Shown piece after piece: positions 380 to 64,000 of a DNA stretch of 64,000 nucleotides (positions are counted from its first letter, which is position 1; each line of letters opens with the position of its first letter). The DNA is taken from positions 447 through 64,446 of the forward strand of contig JAPLME010000004.1 of NCBI GenBank assembly GCA_026387175.1, written 5' to 3'. The notes under the pieces are model-generated. The model saw only the letters and a list, made by a program, of their open reading frames with translations. It made no database searches and was not told the origin of the DNA. This DNA comes from Candidatus Omnitrophota bacterium. Its GTDB lineage: Bacteria > Omnitrophota > Gorgyraeia > 2-01-FULL-45-10. Made by a program: the position numbers and the translations under genes.

Positions 380-3333
<2,954 letters not shown>

Positions 3334-43645: not shown

Positions 43646-43730
43646 TACCGTATTAGACCCCCAGGGTCTAGGAGGTAGGCGAATTGACAAATAGCTACTC
43701 CTATGGTAACTTATACTGAAATAAGGATTT

Positions 43731-46884: not shown

Positions 46885-46889
46885 AGATA

Positions 46890-49270: not shown

Positions 49271-50265
49271 TCACGCTGGGCATTGAGACCTCATGCGACG
49301 AGACGAGCGTCTCTGTTACCAGCTCCAGGACCGTGCTTTCTAATGTGGTAACGTCCAGCGTCCATCTTCATAAAAAATACGGCGGCGTGGTGCCGGAGAT
49401 AGCGTCCCGTTACCATGTGGAATATATAGCGGAGGTTCTTTCTAAGGCGCTGGAGCGGTCCGGGAGAAAATTAAAGGATGTGGACCTGGTGGCGGTCACA
49501 AACGGCCCCGGCCTTGTAGGCGCGCTTCTGACAGGTATTTCGCTGGCGAAGGCGCTGAGTTATGCCATGGATGTGCCGATCATAGGCGTAAACCACATAC
49601 TCGCGCACCTCTATAGCTCATTTTTAACCGAGGAAGGCCTGTCGTTCCCGTTCGTCGGCCTCGTGGTATCCGGCGGGCATACGGCGCTATTCTATTGCAA
49701 GGATATAAATGACCAGGAAGTGCTGGGGCAGACACAGGACGACGCCGTAGGAGAGGCGTATGATAAGGTGGCTAAGCTTCTGGGCCTGGGATATCCGGGC
49801 GGGCCGATAATAGAGAAGATGGCCGCGCGCGCCACCGGAAAGAATAAGATAACGTTTCCCAGGAGCTATCTTGGCAAGGATTCGCTGGACTTCAGCTTCA
49901 GCGGCGTAAAGACAGCGGTACTATATTATATGCAGAAGGTAAAGAATCCGGACGCTGTCCTTATCAGCGATGTCTGTTATGCTTTTCAGGAAGCGGCGCT
50001 CGATGTGCTGGTCGAGAAGGCGTGCCTTGCCTGCGATATGAAAAAGGCGAAGAGGATAGTAATAGGGGGAGGCGTGGCGGCCAACTCCGGACTCAGGCGG
50101 AAGCTCTTGAGTCGCTCGGCGCTCTCCGGGATCAAAGCCTATTTTCCCGAGATGAAATATTGCATGGATAACGCGGCAATGGTCGGAGCGCTGGGAGAAG
50201 CGCTCTATAAAAAGGGATGCAGGTCCGATATGTATTTAACTGCGGAACCGAATTTGAGGGCTTAA
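49267..50265 (+). CDS. tsaD: tRNA N6-adenosine threonylcarbamoyltransferase TsaD
   Basis: ITLGIETSCDETSV N-terminus. HxxxH metal motif (VNHILAHL). Kae1/Gcp family. Confidence 0.92.
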   Translation: MITLGIETSCDETSVSVTSSRTVLSNVVTSSVHLHKKYGGVVPEIASRYHVEYIAEVLSKALERSGRKLKDVDLVAVTNGPGLVGALLTGISLAKALSYAMDVPIIGVNHILAHLYSSFLTEEGLSFPFVGLVVSGGHTALFYCKDINDQEVLGQTQDDAVGEAYDKVAKLLGLGYPGGPIIEKMAARATGKNKITFPRSYLGKDSLDFSFSGVKTAVLYYMQKVKNPDAVLISDVCYAFQEAALDVLVEKACLACDMKKAKRIVIGGGVAANSGLRRKLLSRSALSGIKAYFPEMKYCMDNAAMVGALGEALYKKGCRSDMYLTAEPNLRA

Positions 50266-50283
50266 CTCACACGGAGGATCTTT

Positions 50284-50955
50284 ATGGTAAATGACTGGAT
50301 GATAATATGGAGGCTTATACTGGCGGCGGTACTGAGCGGAGCGATAGGTTTTGAACGTGAGTTTCACGGACGCTCGGCCGGATTCAGGACGCACATCCTG
50401 CTCTGCATAGGCTCGACGCTCATAATGCTTACATCGATGCACATGTTCGATCTATATGCCGGGAAGGTGGTCGTGGACCCGGGCAGGATAGCGGCAGGCG
50501 TTATCACCGGCATAGGATTCCTGGGGGCCGGCACGATAATGCATTTTAAGTCGTCTATAAGGGGTCTCACCACCGCGGCGAGCCTATGGGTGGTGGCGGG
50601 CATAGGCCTTGCGGTAGGGTCGGGGCTTTATTTTGGGGCGATCATCACTACAGCTATTACGATGGTGGCCCTGATGATATTCGCGAAATTAGAGCATGCC
50701 ATGATAAGAAAAGACTGGTATAAGACCATAATAGTAGAGGCGAAAGAAGGCGTTGACCAGTTAAGGTCCGTGCGTGGTATACTGGAAGAGTGGCATGCGG
50801 AGATAACCGATTTCGAGATCGATCACGCGAAAGAGAGCGGTAATATGCTGCTCAAGCTAGGGCTGAAGTTAAAGTCGCCGAAACACGCCGACCGCTTAGT
50901 GGAGGACATAGGTTCTATCAAAGGCATAAATAGCGTAAAGTGGGATTGGGAATAA
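50284..50955 (+). CDS. mgtC: MgtC/SapB family membrane protein
   Basis: Four to five TM helices with the conserved MgtC N-domain and ACT-like C-terminus. Confidence 0.8.
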   Translation: MVNDWMIIWRLILAAVLSGAIGFEREFHGRSAGFRTHILLCIGSTLIMLTSMHMFDLYAGKVVVDPGRIAAGVITGIGFLGAGTIMHFKSSIRGLTTAASLWVVAGIGLAVGSGLYFGAIITTAITMVALMIFAKLEHAMIRKDWYKTIIVEAKEGVDQLRSVRGILEEWHAEITDFEIDHAKESGNMLLKLGLKLKSPKHADRLVEDIGSIKGINSVKWDWE

Positions 50956-50968
50956 GAGGATAATTTAA

Positions 50969-51367
50969 ATGTCCGAAAAATTATTATCGATAAAAGAAGT
51001 CGCGGATCATCTGAAGATATCGGAAGAGGAAGTGAAGCGGCTCGTGGACATAGGCGAGATCCCGGCTTATAAGATAGGCGGGACATTCCTGCGGTTCAGG
51101 AAAGAGCATATAGACGCTATAAAAGACGAGATAGAGGCGGTGGAATGGATGTTCCCTGAGCATGCCGCTCCGGTCCTCGACGAGCATGGTAAGCCTACGC
51201 ATCATTTGACGGAGCTTGAGGTAGAGATAAAGGCCCGCGAGCCCGCCGTAAGGCAGTACGATTATTCGCCGATCGAGAGGATAAAGGATTTTATCTATTT
51301 TTACGATTTTTATATATTATCGATTATCGTGATAAGCGTATTGTTATTTTTGATATTTAAAAAATAA
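50969..51367 (+). CDS. Excisionase-family (MerR-like) HTH protein with a C-terminal transmembrane anchor
   Basis: LSIKEVADHLKISEEEVKRLVDIGEIPAYKIGGTFLRFRKEHIDAI matches the excisionase-family DNA-binding domain. The last ~30 residues are strongly hydrophobic (FYILSIIVISVLLFLIF). Confidence 0.65.
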   Translation: MSEKLLSIKEVADHLKISEEEVKRLVDIGEIPAYKIGGTFLRFRKEHIDAIKDEIEAVEWMFPEHAAPVLDEHGKPTHHLTELEVEIKAREPAVRQYDYSPIERIKDFIYFYDFYILSIIVISVLLFLIFKK

Positions 51368-51368
51368 A

Positions 51369-52109
51369 ATGTCCGAAAAAACAGCTAAAATATTAAAAGG
51401 CGTCCGCCATGGACGAATATCCGTCCATAAGGCGCTCTTATCGCTAAGGGATATGCCTTACAAGGATATCGGGTTCGCGAAGATCGACAGTCACAGGACC
51501 CTGAGGCGCGGTTTTCCGGAAGTGGTGTTTGGTAAAGGTAAGACCGTAGATCAGATAGTCGAAATATCAAAACGAATAATAGCCCATGACGGCATACTTC
51601 TTGTGACCCGCGCCCCGAAGGCAGCTTATCTGAAGCTTAGGCGGGCCTATCCAAAAGTTAAGTATGACGAGAGGGCCTCCTGCTTAAGTTACAGAGAAGA
51701 TCGTCCCATTCCGAAGAAAGGCCCGGTCCTGGTGATAACAGCGGGCACGGCCGATCTGCCTGTCGCGGAAGAGGCGCGCATAACTCTGGAGTTAATGGGA
51801 AACTCGGTCGAGATATTATGCGATGTCGGAGTCGCGGGAATACACAGGATACTCGATAAAAGGCACATTCTGGATAAGGCGAATGTCATAATAGTGATAG
51901 CGGGTATGGAGGGGGCGCTTGCGAGCGTAGTCAGCGGGCTAGTATCGAAGCCGGTGATAGCTGTTCCCACGAGCGTCGGCTACGGCGCAAGTTTCGAAGG
52001 GATAGCCCCGCTCCTTACGATGATGAATTCATGCTCGCCCGGAGTTTCGGTAGTCAATATCGATAACGGTTTCGGCGCGGGATATTTCGCATCCCTTATA
52101 AACAGATAG
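51369..52109 (+). CDS. larB: LarB-like PurE-family carboxylase/hydrolase (nickel-pincer cofactor biosynthesis)
   Basis: PurE-like fold with a LarB-specific N-terminal extension. GMEGALASVVSGL...VIAVPTSVGYGA. Confidence 0.75.
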   Translation: MSEKTAKILKGVRHGRISVHKALLSLRDMPYKDIGFAKIDSHRTLRRGFPEVVFGKGKTVDQIVEISKRIIAHDGILLVTRAPKAAYLKLRRAYPKVKYDERASCLSYREDRPIPKKGPVLVITAGTADLPVAEEARITLELMGNSVEILCDVGVAGIHRILDKRHILDKANVIIVIAGMEGALASVVSGLVSKPVIAVPTSVGYGASFEGIAPLLTMMNSCSPGVSVVNIDNGFGAGYFASLINR

Positions 52110-52115
52110 GATGCC

Positions 52116-53294
52116 ATGAAGATAGCGTATTTAGATTGTTTCAGCGGTATCAGCGGAGATATGACGATAGCCGCGTTTTTAGACGCGGGCTTAAAACTAC
52201 CCGTATTATCGGACGAGCTGAGTAAATTGAAGATAAAAGGCTATCGGCTTAAAGCCGGCAAGGTTAAGCGCGGAGCGATAGTCGGAACTAAATTTGATTG
52301 TATTGTCACAAAAGATTACAGCGGCCACAGGTCGTTAAAAAGCATAATCTCGATTATAGATAAGAGTTCGTTAAACCCCCGGATTAAAGCCATCTCTAAA
52401 GAGATGTTCAAAAATATAGGAAAGGCCGAAGCGAAGATACACGGGTCCGGAAAGAACGAAACTGTCTGGCTCCATGAGCTCGGCGACATAGATTCCATAA
52501 TAGATATCGTGGGCATCGCGATCGCGGTAGATTCGCTCGGCATCGACGAGGTTTACGCCTCGCGCGTAAATATGGGCAGGACATTCGTAAATACGGCCCA
52601 CGGGACCCTTCCGATACCGGCCCCCGCGGCGCTTGAGTTATTGAAGGGGGTGCCCACAAATATTCTGGACGTAGAAGCGGAACTTGTCACTCCTACCGGC
52701 GCAGGTTTATTAAAGACGCTTTCGAAAGGCTTCGGCGCGATGCCGTCGATGAAAATATCCGATATAGGCTACGGAGCGGGAACCAAAATAATTAAAGAGA
52801 TGCCTAATATGCTGCGTCTTATCATAGGGACGACGAGCGTGCCCTCGCCTAAAGAGGACAAGGTCCTGGTGGTCGAGACGAACATCGACGATATGAACCC
52901 GCAGTATTTCGAATATATTTTCGAGAGGCTGTTTTCCGCCGGAGCCCTCGACGTATATTCCACTCATATTCAGATGAAGAAGACGAGGCCTGCCTACAAG
53001 CTTACGGTGATATGCGAGCCGAAAGATCTGGATAAGATATCGTCGATAATATTCAGCGAAACCACGACGATCGGTATCAGGTTTTATGAGACGCTCAGGA
53101 TTAAGCTCGAAAGAAGGACAGTGAAGGCGAAGACGAAATATGGTAATATCCGGGTAAAGGTTAGCGCGCGCCCCGGTGAAATATTAACGGCTACGCCTGA
53201 ATACGATGATTGCCGTAAGGCCGCGCGCTCTAAGAAAGTACCGCTAAGAGAGGTTTCCGACAGGGCAAGGGAGGCCGCGTATGAAAACAGTTAA
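52116..53294 (+). CDS. larC: LarC-like (DUF111) nickel-insertion protein
   Basis: MKIAYLDCFSGISGDM N-terminus typical of LarC/DUF111. ~390 aa. Confidence 0.75.
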   Translation: MKIAYLDCFSGISGDMTIAAFLDAGLKLPVLSDELSKLKIKGYRLKAGKVKRGAIVGTKFDCIVTKDYSGHRSLKSIISIIDKSSLNPRIKAISKEMFKNIGKAEAKIHGSGKNETVWLHELGDIDSIIDIVGIAIAVDSLGIDEVYASRVNMGRTFVNTAHGTLPIPAPAALELLKGVPTNILDVEAELVTPTGAGLLKTLSKGFGAMPSMKISDIGYGAGTKIIKEMPNMLRLIIGTTSVPSPKEDKVLVVETNIDDMNPQYFEYIFERLFSAGALDVYSTHIQMKKTRPAYKLTVICEPKDLDKISSIIFSETTTIGIRFYETLRIKLERRTVKAKTKYGNIRVKVSARPGEILTATPEYDDCRKAARSKKVPLREVSDRAREAAYENS

Positions 53295-54273
53295 ATCCGT
53301 TATTTTAATTTTAATATCCGCCGCTTGCGCGATTATTTACGCCGCTGACGCGCCTGCGGATACAATTATCACTAATGACGGGAAAGAGATCAAGGGTATA
53401 GTAGTCGAAGATTACAGGGACAGGGTGATATTCTCCACGGCAGACGGCGAGATCACAGTGATGAAGTCCGACATGCGGGAGCTTTCGTTTGACAGCGATG
53501 AGGACAATCTGATAAAACTCGCTGAGCAAACCCTGGAGCGGCGCGACTATTCCCGTGCCATGAGTTATTATGATATGGCGCTAAAAGCGAACCCTGATTC
53601 CTCGGCGGTAAAACAGGGTATGGCATACTTACGCGGCAGTTTTTTTAGAAAAGAAGAATCTTTGAAAGCAGCTGATATAAAGAGACAGCAGGATATAGAG
53701 CTTTACGGCGGCCAGGCTCCGGAGGCCCAGAAATCCGACGAGACCGGCGATATGACCAGGATGCTGGAAAAGTTGACCGGAATGAGGATCGCGGTAGTGG
53801 ATAATATGCCAAAGATAGAGGCCCTCAGGTCACCTTCGCCGGCATATGAGGCGGGATTGAGGAGGGGGGATATCCTGGTTTCGGTATGGGGCAAGCTTAC
53901 CGGCTATCTGTCACTTAAAGAGATACTGGACCTACTCATCAATAAATCGGCCATAGAGATAAGATGCACAATAGAGCGCGAATCCGATGTAGAGATTAAT
54001 CCGAATAAGACTATCATCTCAGGGATCGAAGACCTCATAGGAGCTTCATTTGCCATGGAGATAGACGGTCTTACGGTATCGGCTGTTAAGGAATCAGGAT
54101 ATGCCGCCCAAGCCGGCCTGCAGAAGGAAGATCTCATAATGGCCATTGACGGCAAACAGACCAGGTATATGCCGCTTAAAAAAGCGGTCGAGCTGATAAG
54201 GAATTTAAAGGAAGGGGCAGTTAAACTGGTTATTAGAAGAAAGACCATAATCTGGAGGACTAACGAGCGATGA
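53281..54273 (+). CDS. Secreted TPR plus tandem PDZ-domain protein
   Basis: Signal peptide, TPR-like RRDYSRAMSYYDMALKANP. Two PDZ-like segments (GLRRGDILVSV, GLQKEDLIMAIDG). Confidence 0.6.
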   Translation: MKTVKSVILILISAACAIIYAADAPADTIITNDGKEIKGIVVEDYRDRVIFSTADGEITVMKSDMRELSFDSDEDNLIKLAEQTLERRDYSRAMSYYDMALKANPDSSAVKQGMAYLRGSFFRKEESLKAADIKRQQDIELYGGQAPEAQKSDETGDMTRMLEKLTGMRIAVVDNMPKIEALRSPSPAYEAGLRRGDILVSVWGKLTGYLSLKEILDLLINKSAIEIRCTIERESDVEINPNKTIISGIEDLIGASFAMEIDGLTVSAVKESGYAAQAGLQKEDLIMAIDGKQTRYMPLKKAVELIRNLKEGAVKLVIRRKTIIWRTNER

Positions 54274-54872
54274 CGCAATTTTCGAAACCTAAGTTCAAGA
54301 GGACGAAATACCTTGTTTCAACGAAGCTTCAGCTGAGGTACGTCGGAATAATATTATTGCTGATGCTTGTGACGGCCCTGATATGCTCGTATATCATATA
54401 TTACACGGTTATGATACTGATGGGCGAGAAGTTATCCAATGTTTATCCTCAGGGGCGCCTTATAGCGATCATCAATACCGTAAACTTGCGGATATTATTC
54501 AGCTTACTCTTAATTACGCCTGTGGTCGCGGTAATCGGCATATTTCTATCGCATAAGATAGCGGGACCTATATACAGGATAGAAAAATTCCTCGGCGACA
54601 TGGCCACAGGAAATTTCGCGGCTCGTATCGTCCTGAGAAAAGGCGACGAGCTTATGTCGGTGGCCGATAAGATAAACGTATTGAATGACAGCTTAAAGAC
54701 TACCATCGGCAGCCAGAAGTCCAGCATGGGAAGGATAGTTGCCGAACTCGATGAACTTAAAAAGATGATTAGCTCAAAACCCGGCGATGTCTTATCGCTG
54801 GATAAGAATGTAGAAAGGCTGCAGGGCGAGATTAGGAATTTAGAGGCGCAGCTCGGAAAATATAAAGTTTAA
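54270..54872 (+). CDS. Two-TM HAMP-domain membrane protein with a C-terminal coiled coil
   Basis: TM1/TM2, HAMP (IAGPIYRIEKFLGDMATGNFAARI) and heptad-repeat tail. No kinase, MCP or GGDEF output domain. Confidence 0.6.
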   Translation: MTQFSKPKFKRTKYLVSTKLQLRYVGIILLLMLVTALICSYIIYYTVMILMGEKLSNVYPQGRLIAIINTVNLRILFSLLLITPVVAVIGIFLSHKIAGPIYRIEKFLGDMATGNFAARIVLRKGDELMSVADKINVLNDSLKTTIGSQKSSMGRIVAELDELKKMISSKPGDVLSLDKNVERLQGEIRNLEAQLGKYKV

Positions 54873-54895
54873 TTCGAATATCTATTTCCTAACAC

Positions 54896-54923
54896 TTGAC
54901 AATCGCGGATTATCGGGTATACT
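54896..54923 (+). promoter_or_regulatory. Consensus sigma70 promoter P1 (-35 ttgaca, 16 nt, -10 tatact) for the FadL-like gene
   Basis: cctaacacttgacaatcgcggattatcgggtatactt. Paralogous to P3 at 56828 (about 34 of 42 positions identical). Confidence 0.6.
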
Positions 54924-54951
54924 TACCTCGATTTACTAAAAAAGGAGAGGT

Positions 54952-56229
54952 ATGACTAAAAAGCTTGACGCAATTATTTTTATTTTAATCGTAACAGTCG
55001 CGATGTGCGTGGTTTCGAGCGATTACGCTTATGCCGGTAACGCTTCACGTATGCTGGGATTTAGCGCGAGAGATGAAGCAATGGCCGGCGCTACCACTGC
55101 TTCCTCGGAGGATACATCATGCTTGGTGAGAAACCCCGCCGGACTTGTAAGGATAGGAAATAGGATCGACGCTTCGTATGAAAATCTTCTTTTTCACGAT
55201 GTAACGTTGAATACCACGGGGACCTCTCTTATACCAGGAGTGCCTTTTACAAACGCGGGTTTAACCCAGACCAGTAATATAAATTACATCCCCGGAGGTA
55301 ACGCAGGTGTTAGTTATCGCATACCGGGAACTGACAAATACCCGATATCTGTCGGTATGGGAGCATTTACAATAGGCGGGATGGCAGGTAACTACGCAAG
55401 TTCCAGGCTCAATACCGCATTATTGGCTAACGGGGGCAATTACGACAAGATGGTAGATTTAAGGACCATGAGATTTGCGCCGGGCATAGCGGCCGCATTT
55501 AACGATAAACTCTCTTTTGGTATGACAGCCAACATAGATCTTCAGGCATTACGCACCAATTTAGCTCACAGCATTACTCCTGCCGGGCTTACGCTTTTTT
55601 CAGAAACAGCGGGCGGAGGAAAATGGGATTTTACAGTTGGCGGAGGTTTCACCGCAGGCCTCCTATACGAGATTAATGATATGGTAAGCCTGGGAGCTTC
55701 CTACGAAAGCCACAACTGGCAGCAGGACCATTATAAATACAAAGATGTTCTGCCATATATAGATGAGCCGCCTATAATAAACTTGGGAGTATCTTTTAAG
55801 CCTATAAAGGATTTAGAGCTTACGTATGATACCCGCTATATTAACTGGACAGATGTGAAGCTTGCGAGGCTTGCTCCCAGACAAGGCGGTTTTGGGTGGA
55901 GGGACCAGTGGGTATTTGCTGTTGGTTCCGAATACACTACCTTTAAAGATAAGTTAAAACTCCGGCTTGGCTATAATTATGGAAGATCTCCTATTCAGCC
56001 GAATGTAGTCTTTGCCAATGCTCTTATGCCGGTAATTGTAGAGCACCATCTTACTACAGGCTTTTCATATTTTATCACGAAAGCCCTGTCTTTAGACTTT
56101 GCGTGGGAGCATCATTTTAGAAATACGATGGTGGACGATGGTGGCGATAGCGCGGATCTTATCGGCACAGGCACACAGGTTACAGGGGCATTGGATGTGC
56201 TAAGCATCGGATTAGGATATAAGTTTTAG
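54952..56229 (+). CDS. FadL/OmpP1/TodX-family outer-membrane hydrophobic-compound channel
   Basis: Signal peptide. Conserved N-terminal hatch NPAGL. Alternating amphipathic beta-strands. C-terminal aromatic residue (LGYKF). Lower GC and different codon usage than upstream genes. Confidence 0.75.
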   Translation: MTKKLDAIIFILIVTVAMCVVSSDYAYAGNASRMLGFSARDEAMAGATTASSEDTSCLVRNPAGLVRIGNRIDASYENLLFHDVTLNTTGTSLIPGVPFTNAGLTQTSNINYIPGGNAGVSYRIPGTDKYPISVGMGAFTIGGMAGNYASSRLNTALLANGGNYDKMVDLRTMRFAPGIAAAFNDKLSFGMTANIDLQALRTNLAHSITPAGLTLFSETAGGGKWDFTVGGGFTAGLLYEINDMVSLGASYESHNWQQDHYKYKDVLPYIDEPPIINLGVSFKPIKDLELTYDTRYINWTDVKLARLAPRQGGFGWRDQWVFAVGSEYTTFKDKLKLRLGYNYGRSPIQPNVVFANALMPVIVEHHLTTGFSYFITKALSLDFAWEHHFRNTMVDDGGDSADLIGTGTQVTGALDVLSIGLGYKF

Positions 56230-56261
56230 ATAACAGATCAGTTGTCAGGATTGTTTTCGAA

Positions 56262-56294
56262 ATAGGGGAGACATAAAACCTCCCCTATTTTTTC
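56262..56294 (+). terminator. Rho-independent terminator after the FadL-like gene
   Basis: ataggggag/ctcccctat 9-bp stem, 9-nt loop, then tttttt. Confidence 0.8.
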
Positions 56295-56333
56295 TGCATA
56301 CTGTTAATCCATTAAATATTAAGATATCATCTA

Positions 56334-56362
56334 TTGACAATCTAAAAAGTGTAGTGTATACT
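56334..56362 (+). promoter_or_regulatory. Perfect consensus sigma70 promoter P2 (ttgaca, 17 nt, tatact)
   Basis: Read directly from the sequence. Drives the 56.47-56.72 kb small-ORF region. Confidence 0.55.
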
Positions 56363-56477
56363 TTATGTAATAATAAAAGAAAGTTAGATAAAACTTAATA
56401 GCTCATCATTTTTATAGTGGTGGGCTATAATTGTCTCTGGCAAAATATAGATCTTTAATAAGAGGGAGGTGGTATGT

Positions 56478-56717
56478 GTGAGAGTGCTAGTGCTTCTTTC
56501 GAGTAATCCGGGAGATGGATTTTTGGTGAAGCTTCATACTGAAGAACTTGTGCGCGAGATTAAGAACCTTATCAGCAAGCGCAGTAATTCGAAAGCCATG
56601 GTAACAGCCCTTACTAAGGGGCGGATCGAGAGGGAGGTTGGGCACCACGATTCAAATGCTGTCGATGCCGAACTTGTTCTGACCCAAGATAGGGTTTGCT
56701 GGAATCCGGCTAAATAA
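56478..56717 (+). CDS. Hypothetical small protein (~79 aa from a GTG start)
   Basis: ORF-track ORF 56469-56717. A GTG at 56478 is 8 nt downstream of the strong SD gggagg. No recognisable domain. The alternative reading is a 10-codon ORF from ATG 56474 (MCESASASFE). Confidence 0.35.
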   Translation: MRVLVLLSSNPGDGFLVKLHTEELVREIKNLISKRSNSKAMVTALTKGRIEREVGHHDSNAVDAELVLTQDRVCWNPAK

Positions 56718-56827
56718 TCTTAAGCGATTTCAGAAAAATGCGTAAAATATTTAATTATTCCTATTTCTGCAACACATCCAATTCCAATAAGTTATATCAA
56801 TTTTTCCAAGTATTTAATTCCTAACTC

Positions 56828-56855
56828 TTGACAACCCCTAATTATCGTGTATACT
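56828..56855 (+). promoter_or_regulatory. Consensus sigma70 promoter P3 (ttgaca, 16 nt, tatact), paralogous to P1
   Basis: cctaactcttgacaacccctaattatcgtgtatactt. Followed by a 9-bp 5'UTR hairpin gtgccctta...taagggcac (about 56879-56908). Confidence 0.6.
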
Positions 56856-56963
56856 TTGCAGCACATTAGCGAAGTGTATGTGCCCTTATATAAAGCTATG
56901 TAAGGGCACAATAGTCTATACCAAAATAGTATAAACTATATAAATCAGAAGGTGGTGTTAGTT

Positions 56964-57161
56964 ATGGCAGATGATACCGTCTTCACTGTGCAGGAATTAT
57001 CCACTTACCTAAGGATGAAACCGGTAACTATTTACAAGCACGCAAAGGCTGGTAAATTGCCCGCATTCAAGGTTGGTGCGAGCTGGCGGTTTAAGAAATC
57101 GACTATAGACCGCTGGATTTCTAATCAGGAAGACAAAGAAAATAACGGCGGTTCAAATTAG
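56964..57161 (+). CDS. Excisionase-family helix-turn-helix DNA-binding protein (~65 aa)
   Basis: FTVQELSTYLRMKPVTIYKHAKAGKLPAFKVGASWRFKKSTIDRWI matches the excisionase/MerR-like HTH family. SD aaggtgg. ORF-track start 56952 (GTG); ATG 56964 is preferred. Confidence 0.7.
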   Translation: MADDTVFTVQELSTYLRMKPVTIYKHAKAGKLPAFKVGASWRFKKSTIDRWISNQEDKENNGGSN

Positions 57162-57164
57162 CGC

Positions 57165-57205
57165 CTGACTGTAATAATTAATAGTCAGGCGTTTTTATTT
57201 TAACT
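57165..57205 (+). terminator. Rho-independent terminator after the HTH gene
   Basis: gcctgact/agtcaggc stem with a 13-nt loop followed by tttttatttt. Confidence 0.7.
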
Positions 57206-57242
57206 AATAATGTCTATAAAAAAGATATGAGAGAAATATAGT

Positions 57243-57665
57243 ATGCTTAATATAGAAGAGATAAAGAGTCTTATACCGCAAAGATACCCTTTTCTTATGA
57301 TAGATAGGGTAATTGATATTAAATATGGGGAATATATAAAGGCTTATAAGAATATAAGCATGAATGAAGAGTATTTTAAGGGACATTTTCCTGATTCCGC
57401 GATCTTCCCCGGCGTCCTTACCACTGAGGCTATGGCCCAGGCCGTATGTGTACTGGTGAAGAAGAGCATTAAGGATTTTACCCCTACGCAGTTTTATATC
57501 ACTAATATGAAGATACGCTTTCTAAAGGCTATAGTGCCGGGGGACAGGCTTTATATTACCGCAAAAGTCGTCAAGATGGCGCAGATAGGCGGCATATTTG
57601 AGACGGAGGCTACCGTAGAGAATGACATTGTGGCCAAGGGAGAGATGACCTTTGCCTGCAAATAA
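57243..57665 (+). CDS. FabZ-like hotdog-fold 3-hydroxyacyl-ACP dehydratase
   Basis: LIPQRYPFLMIDRV, catalytic His in GHFP, catalytic Glu in TTEAMAQ. Low GC (~35 percent). Confidence 0.85.
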   Translation: MLNIEEIKSLIPQRYPFLMIDRVIDIKYGEYIKAYKNISMNEEYFKGHFPDSAIFPGVLTTEAMAQAVCVLVKKSIKDFTPTQFYITNMKIRFLKAIVPGDRLYITAKVVKMAQIGGIFETEATVENDIVAKGEMTFACK

Positions 57666-58902
57666 GAGAGTGGTTGTTACGGGAATAGGTATCATATCTT
57701 CAATAGGTACCGGCAAGGACGTGTTCTGGCAATCGCTAAGGGCCGGTAAGTCCGGAATAAGGCCGATCACATTATTCGATACCTCGACAACCAGAGCCAA
57801 AACAGCCGGAGAGATAACCGATTTCAAAGCGGAGAGTTTCTTGGGCGAAAGAGGATTAAGGACATTCGACAGGGTTACAAAACTGGTCCTGTCAGCGGCA
57901 AAGCTTGCGCTTGACGATACTGGTTTTAAATATCCGCTGGATGAGGATCTGTCGGTAAGGACAGGCGTATCTCTCGGGTCCACTCTCGGCAGTGTATGGT
58001 CCATAAGCGAATTTGATAAACAGGGATTAAGGGAAGGGCCAAGCACGGTGAATCCTGCGTTATTTCCAAATACTGTTATAAATGCCCCCGCAAGCCAGAT
58101 ATCTATTAAATATAATATAAAAGGCTTTAATACCACTATATCGACAGGATTTGCCTCAAGCTTAGACGCAATTGATTACGCGGCTAATTTCATTAAGTTA
58201 TATGACTATGACGTTGTCCTGGCGGGCGGGGTTGAAGAATTGTGTTTGCAGACATTCCTTGGGTTTCATAAGATAGGCCATCTGGCCGGCTCAAGAGAAG
58301 GTAAGGCGGAAGTGAATTGTCCTTTCGATAAGAGACGAAACGGCATAATCCTCGGAGAAGGCGCCTGTATATTTATACTGGAGGAGATGGAGCATGCCAG
58401 GAAAAGAGGCGCCAATATTTATGCCGAGATTTTAGGATACGGCGCGAGTTTTGATCCTAAGAGTAAGAATGTATACAGCCCTAAGGCTGATGGCGCGACA
58501 AGGGCGATAAAGCTTGCGCTGGAGGAATCCGGCACCGCGCCCGATGAGATCGATTATATATCGGCATGCGCTAACTCTACACTCGATTGCGATGTGATGG
58601 AGACGCGCGCGGTCAATCGTGTCTTTAGCGATAATGCGAAGAAGATACCGGTAAGCTCTATTAAATCCATGATAGGCGACACCTTCAGCGCGAGCGGCGC
58701 GATGAACGTCGCCGCTTCGATAGGCGCGATAAAAGAAAACTTCATACCGCCCACGATCAATTACGAGGTAAAGGATATACGATGTGACTTGGACTACGTG
58801 CCGAATAACTCTAGAGACAAAAAAGTAGCGAAAGTCCTGATAAACTCATTTACGCCCACGGGCGCGAACTCGAGCCTGGTAGTGGGAAAGGTCGCGGGAT
58901 AG
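57652..58902 (+). CDS. Ketosynthase-fold protein lacking the Cys-His-His triad (chain-length-factor / KS-beta-like partner)
   Basis: Thiolase/KAS fold throughout. The active-site TACxxG is replaced by STGFAS. HGTGT is replaced by CANST. The second His (GHT) is replaced by GDT. TTG start overlaps the FabZ-like gene. Confidence 0.8.
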   Translation: MPANKRVVVTGIGIISSIGTGKDVFWQSLRAGKSGIRPITLFDTSTTRAKTAGEITDFKAESFLGERGLRTFDRVTKLVLSAAKLALDDTGFKYPLDEDLSVRTGVSLGSTLGSVWSISEFDKQGLREGPSTVNPALFPNTVINAPASQISIKYNIKGFNTTISTGFASSLDAIDYAANFIKLYDYDVVLAGGVEELCLQTFLGFHKIGHLAGSREGKAEVNCPFDKRRNGIILGEGACIFILEEMEHARKRGANIYAEILGYGASFDPKSKNVYSPKADGATRAIKLALEESGTAPDEIDYISACANSTLDCDVMETRAVNRVFSDNAKKIPVSSIKSMIGDTFSASGAMNVAASIGAIKENFIPPTINYEVKDIRCDLDYVPNNSRDKKVAKVLINSFTPTGANSSLVVGKVAG

Positions 58903-58906
58903 AGAC

Positions 58907-60010
58907 ATGAGAAATGTTTTCATCACAGGCGCGACGGGATTTTTGGGTAGCTACTTATTGAAACGTATACTGGATGACGGTGATACGCGGCCGATTGTTC
59001 TGGCGAGGGGCAAAAAGACAGGATCGGCAGCCGAGAGAGTTAAAAATATAGCGAAATATTTTTACGGTGGCAATTACGCTACGGCACTTAAAAGGATCAG
59101 GGTGGTAGAGGGCGAGGTAGATAAAGAATTTCTCGGTATAGATAATGCGATTAGGAAGCCTCTCATTAAAGAGGTAGATGAGATTTATCATTCAGCGGCT
59201 ATAGCCGAGTTTCGCATACCGCTCGATAGGATACGAAGATCAAATGTTATCGGCACTGAAAATGTCCTTAAATTCGCGATGGAATGTAAGGCTTCCGGCC
59301 ATATGAAAAAACTGAATCATATAAGCACAACGTTTGTTGCCGGCAAAAAAAGCGGCGTATTTTATGAAAAGGATCTTGATGTTGGGCAGAAATTCAATAA
59401 TACATACGAGCAGAGTAAATTTGAGGCGGAAATCCTGGTGCATAAGTATATGAAAAAAGGACTTACCGCGGCCATATTCCGGCCCAGCATACTAACCGGC
59501 GATTACGTTGCAGGGAGAACTTCAAATTTTAAAATGCTTTATCAACCTCTGCGGTTCTTTGTTAGAGAGCTTTTTGATGCTATTCCGGCTGATAGATCGA
59601 CGTGTTTTAATATGATACCCGTAGATTTTACGGCGGAAGCTATTTGCGCTATCACCAAAGAGAATGAGTCCATAGGCGGAACGTATCACATAGCGAATAC
59701 GCGTATAATGCCATTGGGCAGCTTTATTGATGTAGCCAGTGATTTCTTTGGTTTTAAAAAGCCGGAATTCGTTCCCTTAAAAGACTTTAGCATGAATACG
59801 CTTACGACAGTTCAGAAAAACCTTATAGAGCCATATATTCCGTATTTTAATTACAAGACTATATTTGATTCAGTAAATACGATGGATATGCTAGAAGAAA
59901 AGGGCTTTCAGTGTCCGATTGTTGATACAGATTTTCTGGTTAAGCTATTTAAGTTTTGCGATGAGACTGGATTTATGAAAAGAAAGAAGCGATATGTTAC
60001 TGCAGGGTAA
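58907..60010 (+). CDS. Thioester-reductase-type (NAD_binding_4 / fatty acyl reductase-like) SDR protein
   Basis: ITGATGFLGSYLL Rossmann motif, catalytic YEQSK (YxxxK). ~370 aa with the C-terminal substrate domain typical of terminal R domains and acyl-ACP/CoA reductases. Confidence 0.75.
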   Translation: MRNVFITGATGFLGSYLLKRILDDGDTRPIVLARGKKTGSAAERVKNIAKYFYGGNYATALKRIRVVEGEVDKEFLGIDNAIRKPLIKEVDEIYHSAAIAEFRIPLDRIRRSNVIGTENVLKFAMECKASGHMKKLNHISTTFVAGKKSGVFYEKDLDVGQKFNNTYEQSKFEAEILVHKYMKKGLTAAIFRPSILTGDYVAGRTSNFKMLYQPLRFFVRELFDAIPADRSTCFNMIPVDFTAEAICAITKENESIGGTYHIANTRIMPLGSFIDVASDFFGFKKPEFVPLKDFSMNTLTTVQKNLIEPYIPYFNYKTIFDSVNTMDMLEEKGFQCPIVDTDFLVKLFKFCDETGFMKRKKRYVTAG

Positions 60011-60731
60011 AGTCGTAATAGTTACGGGCGGCACCCGCGGTATTGGCAGGGCTACTGTTTTTGAGTTCATCCAAAGTGGGGCCAAAGTGGTTTTTACATA
60101 TTTAAAGAGTGATGAATCAGCCGGAATAATATTGGATGAGATAAAGGAGATGGGTGGTGAGGCTGTGGCATTAAAGGCTGATACTCGCGATTACAAAGAA
60201 GCGAAAAGGGTTATTGAGGAAACAATTAATAAGTTTGGCACGGTCGATATCCTGGTCAACAACGCGGGGATAATTAAAGATAAAGCGCTTATGATGATGG
60301 ATCCTACAGAATGGCAAGAGGTTATCGACACTAATCTTACCGGTTATTTTAATATGGCAAAGGCATGCATCGTCACTATGCTGAAGCAGAAAAGCGGTAA
60401 CATTGTAAACATATCTTCTATCGCCGGTGTTGTGGGCACGCCGCGCCAGGTAAATTATTCGAGTGCTAAGGCCGGTATAATAGGTCTCACGAAGTCACTT
60501 GCAAAGGAAGTGGGCCCGTATAATATCAGGGTAAACGCTGTGGCGCCCGGCTATATCGAGACAGACATGACTAAAGATTTGAAGCAGAAAGAGAATCTTT
60601 TGAAGATGATACCCTCCGCAAGGTTCGGAAGGCCGGAAGATGTCGCAAAAGTTGTTTTATTTTTAGCAAGCAGCAAGGCAGGTTATATAACCGGACAAGT
60701 TATTAAAGTTGATGGCGGTTTAGCAATCTAA
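59994..60731 (+). CDS. 3-oxoacyl-ACP reductase (FabG-like ketoreductase)
   Basis: TGGTRGIGRA cofactor motif. NAG, S...YSSAK (S-Y-K triad). ~245 aa classical SDR. Confidence 0.88.
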   Translation: MLLQGKVVIVTGGTRGIGRATVFEFIQSGAKVVFTYLKSDESAGIILDEIKEMGGEAVALKADTRDYKEAKRVIEETINKFGTVDILVNNAGIIKDKALMMMDPTEWQEVIDTNLTGYFNMAKACIVTMLKQKSGNIVNISSIAGVVGTPRQVNYSSAKAGIIGLTKSLAKEVGPYNIRVNAVAPGYIETDMTKDLKQKENLLKMIPSARFGRPEDVAKVVLFLASSKAGYITGQVIKVDGGLAI

Positions 60732-60755
60732 TTTTAAATTAAGGAGACAGTATAA

Positions 60756-61010
60756 ATGGCTATTCAATCCGAAAATATTGAAAAAGAGATGCGCTCGCTT
60801 GTAGCTGAGATACTTGAGATACAAGAAGACAAGATAAAGCCGAGTATGAAATTTGTTGAGGAGCTCGGCATGGACTCTATGATGGCTCTTGAAATTCTTG
60901 CTTCGGCTGAGAAGAAATATAAGATTAAAATACCGGAAGAACATCTTACGAAAGTGACGACGCTTAAGAACCTGATCGAGGTAGTGCAGAATATCATGGA
61001 GAAGAAGTAA
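60756..61010 (+). CDS. Dedicated acyl carrier protein
   Basis: 84 aa. Phosphopantetheine attachment site LGMDSMMALE (DS motif). Acidic helix II. Confidence 0.85.
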   Translation: MAIQSENIEKEMRSLVAEILEIQEDKIKPSMKFVEELGMDSMMALEILASAEKKYKIKIPEEHLTKVTTLKNLIEVVQNIMEKK

Positions 61011-61015
61011 AACGC

Positions 61016-62227
61016 GTGCACAATAACAGAGTGGTGGTAACAGGTTTAGGGGTTGTAAGTTCTATCGGAATCGGCAAGGATAAATTTTGGAATAATCTAA
61101 TAGCTGGTAAATCGGGGGTAAGCAAGGTAGAGTCTTTTGACACCTCAAAATATGAAAATCATATGGGTGGGGAAATAAAAGATTTTGACCCGAATGATTT
61201 TATTAAAAAAGATAAAATCAAGAGATTGGGACGCGGATCTCAATTTGCTATTGCGGCAACGAAACTAGCCCTTTCTGATTCAGGAGTAGAATTCGAAAAG
61301 ATAGATAAGAATAGAATTGGTGCGATAATTGGCACAACAATGGCAGATTCTCAGAGACTGGAAGAGATGGATAAGACGTGGGTTGAAAGTAGCGAGAAAG
61401 ATGTGGATGCGAAATTGATACCGCAGTATCCCGGAAGCATTATCGCATCGAGCATAGGATTTGAGCTGGGTGTTCAAAATCTTGTATATTCTATACCGAC
61501 TGCCTGCTCAGCAGGTAATTATTGCATAGGGTATTCTTATGATATGATCAGGACAGGGAAAGCAGACTTTATGTTGGCAGGCGGCTCGGATTCTTTTTCA
61601 AGAGTTGCTTTTACTGGATTTAATCGCCTCTTTGCTGTGGCCCCAGAAAAGTGCCAGCCATTTGATAGGAATAGAAAAGGTATGATGGTCGGAGAGGGAT
61701 CCGGAGTTTTAGTTTTAGAATCATTAGATAGTGCGCGGAAAAGAAGAGCAAATATATATGCGGAAGTATTGGGATATGCCTTGAGCTGCGATGCTCATCA
61801 CATGACGGCTCCTTCGGTTGAAGGTATTTCACGTGTTATGAAGAAAGCGATAAAGAATGCGGATATTCATTCAGAAGATGTCGATTATATCTCGGCACAT
61901 GGAACGGGAACGCCGGCGAACGATAAGGCAGAGTGCGCGGCAGTGAAAGAAGTATTTGGCGATGGGTATAAAGAGGTGCCCGTTAGCTCTATTAAATCTA
62001 TGCTTGGCCATACAATGGGCGCCGCAAGCGCTATAGAAGCAATTACATGTTGCCTTGCGATAAAAGAAGGATCTATTCCGCCTACGATAAATTATGAAAC
62101 ATCGGATCCGGAGTGTGATATCGATTGCGTTCCCAACATTGCGAAAAAAAAGACCGTGCGAATCGCGCTGAATAACTCTCTTGCTTTCGGTGGGAACGAT
62201 GCATGCCTTGTACTGGGAAAGCTATAA
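61016..62227 (+). CDS. Beta-ketoacyl-ACP synthase (active KS, FabF-like)
   Basis: Active-site Cys in PTACSAGN. His in SAHGTGT. His in GHTMGAA. ~400 aa. Confidence 0.88.
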   Translation: MHNNRVVVTGLGVVSSIGIGKDKFWNNLIAGKSGVSKVESFDTSKYENHMGGEIKDFDPNDFIKKDKIKRLGRGSQFAIAATKLALSDSGVEFEKIDKNRIGAIIGTTMADSQRLEEMDKTWVESSEKDVDAKLIPQYPGSIIASSIGFELGVQNLVYSIPTACSAGNYCIGYSYDMIRTGKADFMLAGGSDSFSRVAFTGFNRLFAVAPEKCQPFDRNRKGMMVGEGSGVLVLESLDSARKRRANIYAEVLGYALSCDAHHMTAPSVEGISRVMKKAIKNADIHSEDVDYISAHGTGTPANDKAECAAVKEVFGDGYKEVPVSSIKSMLGHTMGAASAIEAITCCLAIKEGSIPPTINYETSDPECDIDCVPNIAKKKTVRIALNNSLAFGGNDACLVLGKL

Positions 62228-62230
62228 GAA

Positions 62231-63631
62231 ATGAAAAATAAATACGATGCGATTATAATCGGTGCTGGGATAAGCGGTCTTATTTGTGGAACATATCTTG
62301 CGAAAAATGGCCTAAAGGTGTTAATGCTGGAGAAAAATAAAAATGCTGGAGGTTGTTGTGCATCTTTTTATAGGAAAGGCATAAAATTTGACGCGGGCGC
62401 ACACATTATAGGAGAATGCGGTAAGGGTGGGATGTTGCGCACAATATTAACTTATCTTGGCGTTAATCAAAAATTTTATCAACCAAAATTTACTGATCGC
62501 ATATTTTTTCCAGAGGATATCGTTGAAATACCTAACGATTTAGCTGGGTATGCAGCTTTATTACAGCAAAAATTTAAAAAAGAGCGGAATAATATATCGC
62601 GATTTTTTAATAAATTCATCAGTTGTTCAAATATCGCAAATATAGCGCTGATTCAAAAAAATTATTCCGGCATTACCTACCAAGAATTGTTAAATAAATA
62701 TTTTATAAGTAACAGGTTGAAAGCGATTTTATCGGCTCAAAGCGGCTATTTAGGAGTAGCACCAAATAAAGTCAACGCGGCAGCTATGTGCGCAATGTTG
62801 TCCAGTTATTTGGCAAAGGGAGCATATTATCCGGTCGGGGGGTCTCAATCTTTTGCAGATAATATTATGAAAAGATTTATTTATTATGGTGGAGAGCTAA
62901 AGCTTGCATCACGCGTAAGTAGGATACTGCTAAGTAATGGTGCGGCTGAAGGCGTTGCAGTGAATGAAAAAGAAATCTTTAAAACAAATAAAATAGTCTC
63001 AAGCATAGATTTGCATACTACTTTATTCGAACTCCTAAAAAATGAAAAAATAAAATCTCAAGTTAAGACACGCTTAACTTTATCTAAAGAAACACCGTCA
63101 TTATTTGTTCTGTATTTAGGGGTAGCCGCTGATACAAAGTTAATAGAAAGAAGTGTCGGTTGGCATTACGCGCATTATGAAATAAATAAGTTTGAGTTTG
63201 ATGATTGTGTATATATAACGGCACCTACTTTATATGATAGCTCCTTGTCGCCAAAAGGTATACATGCTGTTCAACTATTTATAAAATCACGTTATGATTT
63301 TAATAGTATGCGGAATTGGCATGCTGCGAAAGACATCTTTATAAAAGAAGCGTTATTAAAACTTGATATGTTAATTCCAGGGGTGAAGGAAAAGATTACA
63401 GTTATTGAAAGCGCTTCTCCGGAAACTATCCGGCGATTTACAAATAATAAAAATGGAGCCGCTTATGGATGGATGCTTACAACGGGGCAATATGAACGAA
63501 ATAAAATAATTGCGCAAAATGTCAATGATGGTTTATTTTTAACAGGGCATTGGACAAACCCTGGCGGGGGTATAGTCGCTGTAGGTATTTCAGGATGCGC
63601 TGCGGCAAAAAAAATATTGAAAAGTTTATGA
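62231..63631 (+). CDS. CrtI/phytoene-desaturase-family FAD-dependent oxidoreductase
   Basis: N-terminal dinucleotide fold AIIIGAGISGLICGTYLAKNG...LEKNKNAGG. C-terminal HWTNPGGGIVAVGISG typical of the CrtI/amine oxidase family. Very low GC (~33 percent). Confidence 0.8.
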   Translation: MKNKYDAIIIGAGISGLICGTYLAKNGLKVLMLEKNKNAGGCCASFYRKGIKFDAGAHIIGECGKGGMLRTILTYLGVNQKFYQPKFTDRIFFPEDIVEIPNDLAGYAALLQQKFKKERNNISRFFNKFISCSNIANIALIQKNYSGITYQELLNKYFISNRLKAILSAQSGYLGVAPNKVNAAAMCAMLSSYLAKGAYYPVGGSQSFADNIMKRFIYYGGELKLASRVSRILLSNGAAEGVAVNEKEIFKTNKIVSSIDLHTTLFELLKNEKIKSQVKTRLTLSKETPSLFVLYLGVAADTKLIERSVGWHYAHYEINKFEFDDCVYITAPTLYDSSLSPKGIHAVQLFIKSRYDFNSMRNWHAAKDIFIKEALLKLDMLIPGVKEKITVIESASPETIRRFTNNKNGAAYGWMLTTGQYERNKIIAQNVNDGLFLTGHWTNPGGGIVAVGISGCAAAKKILKSL

Positions 63632-64000
63632 AAAATTCGATACTTGCAATAATTAAACATCGAAGAACTATCAGGACTTTTAATAATCGAAAAGTTACTA
63701 AAAATGTGCTTAAGAATATTTTAGAAGCTGGCAGATGGGCGCCCTGTCCTAATAATGTGCAACCATGGATTTTTTATGTCACAAAAAGAAATAATTTTTA
63801 TACTCAAAAAATCATAAAAATTATTCAAAAAGAATCAAAAAACGAAAGTATCGGGGTTTCCGTTTTTTTAAATGACTCGATCAAAATTTTTAAATCCGCA
63901 CCAATCATGATTTATATATTTAAAAAATGTATTTTAGCAAAAAGATACGCTGTTTTAGGGCCCTCTTATCAACAAAAAGGGGAGTTGTTTGAGCATCAAG
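63628..64000 (+). CDS. Nitroreductase-family protein (partial, runs off the window end)
   Basis: MKNSILAIIKHRRTIRTFNNRKVTKNVLKNILEAGRWAPCPNNVQPW matches the nitroreductase N-terminus (RRxxR, then AxxAPS-like). ATGA overlap with the upstream gene. Confidence 0.65.
   Translation, partial: MKNSILAIIKHRRTIRTFNNRKVTKNVLKNILEAGRWAPCPNNVQPWIFYVTKRNNFYTQKIIKIIQKESKNESIGVSVFLNDSIKIFKSAPIMIYIFKKCILAKRYAVLGPSYQQKGELFEHQ

Follow-up and report, generated by a model that had tools for sequence, protein, structure and literature searches.

The set of enzymes formed by a ketosynthase (KS), a chain-length factor (CLF), an acyl carrier protein (ACP), a FabZ dehydratase and a flavoprotein is thought to serve ladderane synthesis in anammox bacteria, and to our knowledge the chemistry of the corresponding gene cluster, anammox Cluster I, has been reconstituted by no one. 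Cluster I (kustE3603-3608 in Kuenenia) encodes amxACP, amxFabZ, amxFabFmut, amxFabF2, a phytoene-dehydrogenase homolog and a B12 radical-SAM enzyme, and has been described as unique to ladderane producers; its amxFabF pair behaves as a KS/CLF complex that decarboxylates malonyl-ACP, and amxFabFmut carries Val in place of the catalytic Cys, and Asn and Glu in place of the two His (bioRxiv 10.64898/2026.05.19.726425). Clusters classified by antiSMASH as "ladderane"-type, with no function assigned, have been reported in metagenome-assembled genomes (MAGs) of Omnitrophota and in other non-anammox phyla, and reported as expressed in the Cariaco Basin (PMC9902471), and syntenic fatty acid synthase (FAS)-like clusters were noted in 2009 in Desulfotalea and Geobacter, those of Desulfotalea including radical-SAM genes (PMC2649909). 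In this work we analyzed a stretch of 64,000 nucleotides (nt) of contig JAPLME010000004.1 from a Candidatus Omnitrophota bacterium (hereafter the window), the last part of which had been tentatively read in an initial annotation as an acquired island carrying a FadL-like channel, a small regulator and a biosynthetic operon. The region from 54.88 kb to past the window end is probably a fixed-site, long-resident, recombining locus for lipid biosynthesis and sensing in this Omnitrophota bacterium: a "ladderane-type" cluster variant without the radical-SAM gene, linked to a FadL channel and to a seven-transmembrane (7TM) sensor kinase. Below, W designates the locus of the studied window and L-numbers designate related metagenome loci.

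The genes of the biosynthetic operon are the following (GC3, GC content at third codon positions):

57243..57665, + strand: FabZ-type 3-hydroxyacyl-ACP dehydratase (NF000582, E 6e-43, above cut-off)
57652..58902, + strand: catalytically dead ketosynthase homolog, CLF-like (Cys/His/His replaced by Phe/Cys/Asp in the active-site alignment)
58907..60010, + strand: stand-alone thioester reductase (NAD_binding_4, Pfam E 1e-54; TIGR01746 E 5e-48; GC3 0.410)
59994..60731, + strand: FabG-type 3-oxoacyl-ACP reductase (TIGR01830 E 1.2e-90, above cut-off)
60756..61010, + strand: dedicated acyl carrier protein (PP-binding domain)
61016..62227, + strand: active ketosynthase (Cys-His-His triad intact in the active-site alignment; GC3 0.374)
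62231..63631, + strand: CrtI/carotenoid-isomerase-family flavoprotein, "phytoene-dehydrogenase-like" (Pfam Amino_oxidase E 7e-19; GC3 0.281)
63628..64000, + strand: nitroreductase-family flavin mononucleotide (FMN) protein, cut by the window end (Pfam Nitroreductase E 9e-25; GC3 0.250)

In Logan contigs the nitroreductase-family protein reaches its full length of 195 amino acids (aa) and is followed by a 7TM-GAF sensor kinase (HisKA_7TM E 5e-10, in L002); the best match to the sensor fragment was 64% identical, and all its named homologs were from Omnitrophota.

The operon contains the first five gene types of Cluster I. It pairs an active KS with a KS homolog that lacks the catalytic triad, and the two are predicted to associate as a heterodimer. 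The active KS shared 57.8% identity with PDB 9s5h_B (E 1.2e-152), the next matches being the ishigamide KS 6kxd (2e-107) and then FabF (~1e-94), and the CLF shared 48.9% identity with 9s5h_C (E 1.7e-117; FabF ~1e-83), so that both were far closer to the 9S5H chains than to FabF or to other polyketide synthase (PKS) ketosynthases. Entry 9S5H appears to be the anammox amxFabF2/amxFabFmut heterodimer, since the catalytic Cys and His of chain B lie at the published positions plus five (Cys170 = Cys165 + 5), chain C carries Val for Cys and Asn/Glu for both His, and the sister entry 9S5I contains an ACP, matching the C8-ACP complex of the published work. The top PDB matches of the ACP (7qv0_D, 7auf_A and 9s5i_E) would correspond to anammox-specific ACP (amxACP), and the operon also holds a FabZ and a CrtI-family flavoprotein. 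The PDB search did not distinguish between amxFabZ and canonical FabZ, with all matches near 1e-30, and the flavoprotein is a phytoene-dehydrogenase-like protein at the level of a family match, its TIGR02730 and TIGR02734 (crtI_fam) scores being below the cut-offs.

Other features differ from Cluster I. At the Cys position of the dead KS, W has Phe instead of the Val or Thr of the anammox proteins; the operon adds a FabG of its own, a thioester reductase and a nitroreductase-family protein; and it is flanked by an HTH_17 gene, FadL and a 7TM-GAF histidine kinase with response regulators. The cobalamin-dependent radical-SAM enzyme is missing: neither a Radical_SAM nor a B12 domain turned up among the window genes, among the genes annotated with Pfam in L176 and L180, or among the additional open reading frames (ORFs) checked in L016, L018, L096, L098, L101, L104, L106 and L107. 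A ladderane product is not expected because the host belongs to Omnitrophota and is not an anammox planctomycete. With the antiSMASH ladderane-type and Desulfotalea clusters, W shares FabF paralogs and a phytoene-dehydrogenase-like gene in a FAS-like operon of a non-anammox phylum. Those reports consist of counts of cluster types or of older synteny comparisons, and say nothing of whether KS and CLF are active or dead, of the differing release genes, of FadL and the sensor kinase as companions of the cluster, of its constant chromosomal position or of how it recombines; thus the kind of cluster was already known, while its architecture and evolutionary behavior are not described there (PMC9902471, PMC2649909).

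The gene content also agrees with that of highly reducing type II PKS, i.e. KS/CLF, a discrete ACP, a ketoreductase, a dehydratase and no enoyl reductase among the cluster genes, as in ishigamide synthesis (Iga11/Iga12, PDB 6KXD-F) and in aryl-polyene synthesis (ApeO/ApeC). Iga11 is the second-best structural relative of the W KS (2e-107), yet this KS is much closer to the anammox pair, and release in W would proceed through a reductase. Aryl-polyene clusters are recognized by an adenylating starter enzyme, a thioesterase, LolA/MMPL export and glycosyl- or acyltransferases; Pfam and NCBIfam searches detected no adenylation, thioesterase, LolA/MMPL or glycosyltransferase domain among the cluster genes.

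In order to evaluate the compositional break, GC content, codon usage and oligonucleotide signatures were compared along the window. The fall in GC content from about 54.9 kb and the third-position shift toward A/T that had been noticed initially were both confirmed. Overall GC was 0.491 for positions 7001-54872 and 0.412 for 54873-64000. In 1-kb windows GC ranged from 0.44 to 0.54 over the 7-54 kb stretch, and the successive values from 54 kb onward were 0.433, 0.468, 0.383, 0.433, 0.471, 0.401, 0.424, 0.421, 0.382 and 0.331, that is, a gradient rather than a step, with two windows near normal (0.468 and 0.471). GC3 averaged 0.594 ± 0.036 (minimum 0.500) in the 43 upstream genes (7.3-54.9 kb) and 0.427 in the 11 genes past 54.9 kb (range 0.250-0.516; Mann-Whitney p = 5e-7), declining toward the window end, where the CrtI-like gene and the nitroreductase gene had the lowest values. 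In 4-kb windows, the tetranucleotide L1 distance was 0.27-0.36 past 55 kb vs. 0.161 ± 0.016 upstream, and the correlation of the composition-normalized signature was 0.67-0.78 vs. 0.895 ± 0.023 (upstream minimum 0.841). The windows past 55 kb were thus outliers in both measures, the shift exceeding a mere change in base composition, and the region deviates in base composition and in oligonucleotide signature from the 48 kb of flank. The statement that intergenic regions become long and AT-rich held in part: four AT-rich gaps (79-246 nt, GC 0.26-0.37) are confined to 54.87-57.24 kb, but upstream gaps of 264-764 nt are as long or longer, though less AT-rich, and past 57.2 kb the genes of the operon are tightly packed. 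The left boundary is a true synteny break. DNA similarity to L016, the next-closest species, runs unbroken over 43704-54882 and then ends, so the proposed start at 54880 proved accurate.

The features between this edge and the operon, including the last gene of the flank, are the following:

54270..54872, + strand: HAMP-like transmembrane protein (weak matches to sensor-kinase HAMP regions; GC3 0.567)
54879..54924, + strand: promoter copy 1, left arm of a 46-nt direct repeat (TTCCTAAC-CTTGACA-N16-TATACT; consensus match 11/12)
54952..56229, + strand: FadL/TodX-family outer-membrane channel for hydrophobic compounds (Pfam Toluene_X E 1.5e-22; GC3 0.441)
56262..56294, + strand: terminator-like hairpin after FadL (ATAGGGGAG...CTCCCCTAT, then a T-run; 9-nt loop; read from the sequence)
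56334..56362, + strand: promoter-like site upstream of orf82 (TTGACA-N17-TATACT; consensus 11/12)
56469..56717, + strand: small conserved ORF (orf82), 79-82 aa, family unassigned
56811..56856, + strand: promoter copy 2, right arm of the direct repeat, upstream of the HTH_17 gene
56857..56963, + strand: conserved 5' leader of the HTH_17 gene (13-bp hairpin/palindrome at 56879-56910)
56964..57161, + strand: HTH_17 (MerR/excisionase-fold) small DNA-binding protein (Pfam HTH_17 E 7.5e-16)
57160..57193, + strand: intrinsic-terminator-like hairpin after the HTH_17 gene (13-bp stem, then a T-run)

Searches against Pfam and NCBIfam bore out the original gene calls for FadL, the orphan ORF, the excisionase-family helix-turn-helix (HTH) gene and the lipid operon.

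The position of the cluster turned out to be shared by a wide group of relatives. An HTH_17 gene followed by the KS/CLF-FabG-ACP-(FabZ) core lies after the HAMP-like gene, sometimes past an insert, in at least ten Omnitrophota lineages (L016, L017, L018, L099, L101, L104, L105, L109, L158 and L176). The same lineages keep the flank order tsaD-MgtC-HTH-LarB-LarC-PDZ-HAMP, with flank proteins 59-93% identical to those of the window. The HAMP-like gene is the last of this conserved flank, its orthologs being 49-88% identical in ten lineages, where they adjoin the upstream side of the cluster. The core is therefore not absent from the same site in close relatives; what varies is FadL with orf82, the reductase and the tail genes. 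Named homologs were nearly all from Omnitrophota, which led us to discard a transfer from another phylum, and the closest relatives of LarC among species-representative genomes were likewise Omnitrophota MAGs.

The closest relative found, L176, is colinear with W at 83% nucleotide identity over 47102-58902, across the compositional break and through FadL, orf82, HTH_17, FabZ and CLF. Identity at four-fold degenerate sites between the two loci was 0.58-0.71 in the flank, 0.62 in FadL and 0.70 in CLF, and it fell to 0.49 in FabG, 0.45 in ACP and 0.34 (near-saturated) in KS. GC at these sites was low in both W and L176 (e.g., 0.44 in FadL vs. 0.62-0.79 in the flank). Since the FadL-to-CLF block is colinear in L176, with flank-like synonymous divergence, it predates the split between W and L176, whose age corresponds to roughly half a substitution per silent site. 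A discrete, newly acquired mobile island is not compatible with this pattern, nor with the presence of the core at the same site in at least ten lineages.

The gene trees, in turn, showed that the cluster did not simply follow its flank. In the tree of eight concatenated flank genes, W grouped with L016 (100% bootstrap) and this pair with L105 (97%), whereas in the tree of CLF, FabG, ACP and KS, W grouped with L109 (100%) and L016 with L104 and L105 (100%). Moreover, L017 and L018, flank sisters that are 81% identical, were separated at 100% by CLF and FabG. The phylogenies of CLF/KS and of the eight flank genes therefore conflict at 100% neighbor-joining bootstrap, and all partners are Omnitrophota. 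Gene order tracked the cluster tree, W, L109 and L176 having FabZ-CLF-...-ACP-KS, and L016, L017 and L104 having CLF-FabG-ACP-FabZ-KS. The outgroup L105 carries the L016 type, so by parsimony it would be the ancestor of W and L176 that replaced its cluster.

The breakpoints point to a further exchange within the cluster. Nucleotide similarity to L096 was 88% up to 58890 and then 72% over 60022-62229, and similarity to L176 ended at 58902 and resumed at 75-82% over FabG-ACP-KS; in both relatives the drop falls exactly at the CLF stop codon (58890/58902). Tail proteins of W and L176 shared 30% (nitroreductase), 33% (CrtI-like) and 56% (sensor) identity. The distal genes have thus been swapped even between close relatives. 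For the CrtI-like protein a 100% identical copy is deposited as Candidatus Omnitrophica and, this own copy aside, no homolog above 48% identity was found in 5.8 billion proteins; in contrast, FadL and CLF have relatives at 88-94%.

Taken together, these patterns suggest the following sequence of events. The cluster site after the HAMP-like gene would be ancestral to the whole clade; in the ancestor of W and L176, the cluster type would have been replaced from another Omnitrophota lineage, and FadL with orf82 would have entered through recombination at a promoter that was duplicated; the genes running from the release enzyme through to the sensor would later have been exchanged again in the form of cassettes.

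The AT shift itself is not restricted to W. A GC3 trough (0.20-0.40 at KS, CrtI and nitroreductase) was found in L016, L098, L104, L106, L109, L176 and L180, both where flank GC3 is about 0.45 and where it is about 0.70, and it recovers at or past the sensor kinase gene, the trough of L103 recovering only in part. AT richness is thus a persistent property of the cluster in all the lineages examined, whatever their genomic GC, and low GC does not hold as a mark of recent import. The recurrent shift would be due either to repeated exchange from AT-rich relatives or to a different mutation-selection balance.

Some points weigh against the reading of a long-resident, recombining locus. The trees were built by neighbor joining from tblastn segments, with distances corrected in a simple way, the metagenome loci were assigned to taxa through synteny and named homologs, and the baseline for composition is 48 kb of flank from one 64-kb window rather than a whole genome. 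FabG alone and HTH_17 alone tend to follow the flank tree, so that the replaced block is a mosaic in its own right, and parsimony alone indicates which way the transfer went. The uniform AT shift could also stem from weak expression or from relaxed selection on codons, in which case there would have been less lateral exchange than we infer. In addition, the link between 9S5H and anammox was drawn from residue numbering and substitutions and not from the title of the entry.

Several of these points are shared by the alternative that survives best, namely a purely native, vertically inherited operon whose low GC3 would stem from AT-biased mutation combined with low expression or with relaxed selection on codons, and which would involve no lateral transfer. 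It would account for an AT shift that appears in every lineage regardless of genomic GC, for the co-inheritance of the FadL-to-CLF block with the flank since the split of W and L176, and for the FabG and HTH_17 trees that tend toward the flank topology. We nevertheless consider it unlikely, given the 100%-bootstrap conflict between flank and CLF/KS in two sister pairs, the presence/absence polymorphism of FadL, reductase, methyltransferases and tail genes, the abrupt identity drop at 58.9 kb in two relatives, and the four-fold sites of KS, near saturation (identity 0.34) where those of the flank are at 0.6-0.7.

A classical mobile island, recently acquired from a foreign low-GC donor and borne by an integrase, a phage or an integrative and conjugative element, is very improbable. 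The sharp compositional and tetranucleotide break would be expected of such an element, an HTH_17 "excisionase-family" gene is present, and in some relatives the corresponding junction is occupied by an IS200-like transposase (L098) or by a restriction-modification system (L106). However, domain searches detected no integrase, transposase or conjugation gene among the genes of 54.9-64 kb or in the 1.9 kb past the window end, and the tRNAs of the window are confined to 5-177, none being close to the region; Pfam/NCBIfam and tRNA searches thereby upheld the initial remark that no integrase, transposase or flanking tRNA is visible. The same-site cluster in at least ten lineages, the block shared with L176 at flank-like divergence, and the almost exclusive occurrence of named homologs in Omnitrophota (including all the named ones of FadL and of the sensor) also argue against import by such an element. 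As to the HTH gene, a role as excisionase was rejected: there is no integrase nearby, and in more than 14 loci the biosynthetic cluster opens with this gene, which has a conserved promoter and leader of its own.

A chimera of two organisms, created at about 54.9 kb during assembly or binning, toward which only the coincidence of the compositional change with an intergenic gap would point, can practically be dismissed, since the HAMP-like gene was recovered in eight independent Logan assemblies (L006-L013), seven of which run on into FadL with proteins 100% identical to those of the window across the junction (L006 covers 13.9 kb, from tsaD to the CrtI-like gene), and since the same junction occurs in L176.

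For the fixed-site locus favored here, breakpoints, tree conflict, synteny and composition, together with the active-site states and the closest solved structures, were observed directly, while we infer the enzymatic roles, product class, channel function, regulation and direction of the replacement. The product would be a fatty-acid-like lipid. The active KS (61016-62227) and its dead partner (57652-58902) would form a heterodimer that primes by decarboxylation of malonyl-ACP and elongates the chain on the dedicated ACP, and FabG and FabZ would process each round, yielding enoyl intermediates. Since no enoyl reductase is encoded among the cluster genes, the chain would be polyunsaturated, unless housekeeping reductases step in. 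The CrtI-family flavoprotein and the nitroreductase-type FMN protein may tailor the double bonds, and the stand-alone thioester reductase is a putative chain-release enzyme that would free the chain as an aldehyde or an alcohol, while in relatives the chain may leave as a methyl ester or in some other form. FadL would let the hydrophobic product, or a lipid related to it, pass through the outer membrane, and the HTH_17 protein and the downstream 7TM-GAF histidine kinase would regulate the system.

The slot between CLF and ACP was variable among lineages. A thioester reductase between CLF and FabG was found only in W, L098, L103, L109 and L180. An ICMT-type methyltransferase accompanied by a protein of ~350 aa of unassigned family was found in L096 (3065-4824) and L018 (18653-20331), a 372-aa NAD-binding protein in L106 (11239-12357) and L135, and a LuxD-like acyltransferase-methyltransferase fusion, located after FabG or FabZ, in L104 (12812-14485) and L176 (12641-14383); L016, L017, L101 and L105 have no gene in the release slot. 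These alternatives look like interchangeable chain-release chemistries. In the tail, a CrtI-family flavoprotein is always accompanied by an FMN protein, mostly a nitroreductase and, in L016, two FMN_red proteins. The tail architecture nearest to that of W is that of L180, in which CrtI and nitroreductase are followed by a histidine kinase and two response regulators. A third, divergent KS-like gene (437 aa) occurs in L016 (17299-19794) together with two FMN_red/flavodoxin-like genes and no nitroreductase, and a third KS, 25-31% identical, recurs in many of the more distant loci (L124-L139).

FadL was a full-length member of its family, the Toluene_X match covering profile positions 18-404 of 421 with 80 bits (cut-off 29.7), and its N-terminus resembles a signal peptide, as in known FadL/TodX channels; it differs from these in lying behind a copy of the promoter of the cluster regulator. 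Its homologs numbered 166, the best 120 of the 166 being 59-88% identical, and all the named ones were from Omnitrophota. FadL with orf82 constitutes a 1.93-kb insert between the two 46-nt repeat arms, which are 83% identical to each other, and the 16-nt core of the repeat occurs only twice in the window (0.12 occurrences expected by chance). The direct repeat encloses just these two genes and is a duplicated promoter, not an attachment (att) site. At the site between the HAMP-like and HTH_17 genes, FadL is present in L176 (84% identical) and absent from L016, L017, L018, L099, L101, L104, L105 and L109, so that the HAMP/FadL adjacency is kept in L176 and not in these eight lineages, and the acquisition of FadL with orf82 as an insertion is supported. 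Both promoter copies are found in W and L176, and a single one in the FadL-less loci; therefore, FadL would be driven by a copy of the promoter of the regulator. orf82 had no match in Pfam or NCBIfam, yet it is conserved in L096 (90%) and L176 (77%), with distant copies (35-43%) in the FadL/sensor module of L177.

FadL also appears next to clusters of this type elsewhere. In L100 a 76% identical FadL directly precedes CLF, and in L107 a distant FadL precedes the HTH_17 gene. FadL is a plausible channel for the product of the cluster, as was initially proposed, because it shares its promoter with the HTH gene and recurs beside clusters in L100, L107 and L176. The recurrent association of FadL, HTH_17, sensor kinase and lipid cluster supports a functional connection, although it falls short of proof. 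Modules without KS/CLF, arranged as HTH_17-FadL-...-HisKA_7TM kinase-(ACP)-response regulator, were observed in L177 (9804-15904) and L178/L179 (9370-17978); they include PilZ or response regulator, methyltransferase, NMO/FabK-like and GDSL lipase genes, and that of L178 adjoins a giant RHS/Laminin_G/Peptidase_C39 protein of more than 3,400 aa. The promoters of the L177 and L178/L179 modules have the same -10 region as that of W.

The HTH_17 protein, 73-96% identical in relatives, is always the first gene product of the cluster (in more than 14 loci), and promoter copy 2 is conserved upstream of its gene in at least 13 related loci. As a conserved first gene with a conserved promoter and leader of its own, and no integrase partner, it reads as a probable regulator of the cluster. 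The leader could be aligned in 12 loci (W, L016, L096, L098, L099, L101, L103-L106, L158 and L176) and contains a palindrome (GCCCTTATA-N8-TGTAAGGGC) and a second conserved block (AGTCTATAC-CAAAATA-GTATAA). The consensus hairpin has a predicted free energy of -15.6 kcal/mol, with weak compensatory changes (2 of 13 pairs, seen in L016). No Rfam family matched the leader, a scan of the region with E values up to 1 gave only a chance-level sraA match, and at gathering thresholds the whole window yielded only rRNA and tRNA. This element may work either as an operator bound by the HTH protein or as a cis-regulatory RNA.

In other lineages, too, the HAMP/HTH_17 junction resembles a hot spot for insertions. 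Genes seen before HTH_17 were an EcoRI-type restriction-modification pair together with a gene resembling type IB topoisomerases in L106 (5387-7166 and 8504-9565), where the upstream flank differs, an IS200-like transposase just upstream in L098 (1423-2007), and Sel1-repeat and PEP-CTERM proteins just upstream in L018 (12848-16000).

Polymorphic loci at fixed sites are familiar from O-antigen and capsule clusters and from the "pherotype" loci of peptide pheromones. By analogy, W resembles them in its fixed position between core genes, persistently lower GC, cassette-like content and conflicting gene trees, and differs from them in that its chemistry would be lipid instead of sugar or peptide, and in that the comparison is made across the species of a clade instead of the strains of one species. 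A bolder extension, to which we would give only a small chance, is that the locus is a self-contained lipid-signaling system, formed by the synthase, FadL and a cognate 7TM-GAF kinase with response regulators, in which chemistry and receptor co-diversify through cassette exchange within Omnitrophota. If true, there would be lipid "pherotypes" with aldehyde or alcohol signals on one side and methyl ester and other forms on the other, and a natural Cluster I without the radical-SAM enzyme would reveal what the enzyme set produces before the cyclobutane chemistry. Omnitrophota core enzymes without radical-SAM and with interchangeable release enzymes come as small, complete operons that could be expressed to learn the product of the module. 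Moreover, a strong compositional anomaly need not mean recent import, which calls for caution with composition-based island callers on MAGs.

Other observations concern the flank and the rest of the window. A second HTH_17 protein (132 aa, with a hydrophobic C-terminal tail) is encoded in the conserved flank at 50969-51367, and a further HTH_17 protein of ~190 aa lies just upstream of the 132-aa one in L017, L018, L099, L101, L104, L105 and L109. The beginning of the window (1-3535) is the interior of an rRNA operon (tRNA-Ile, tRNA-Ala, 23S and 5S). All the long ORFs accepted as genes from 4.2 kb to the window end lie on the + strand; almost every 1-kb segment has a positive GC skew. Two intervals, 24042-24805 (764 nt) and 30981-31611 (631 nt), have neither a gene on the + strand nor an Rfam match, and a perfect promoter-like site (CTTGACA-N17-TATACT) is located at 24106-24135.

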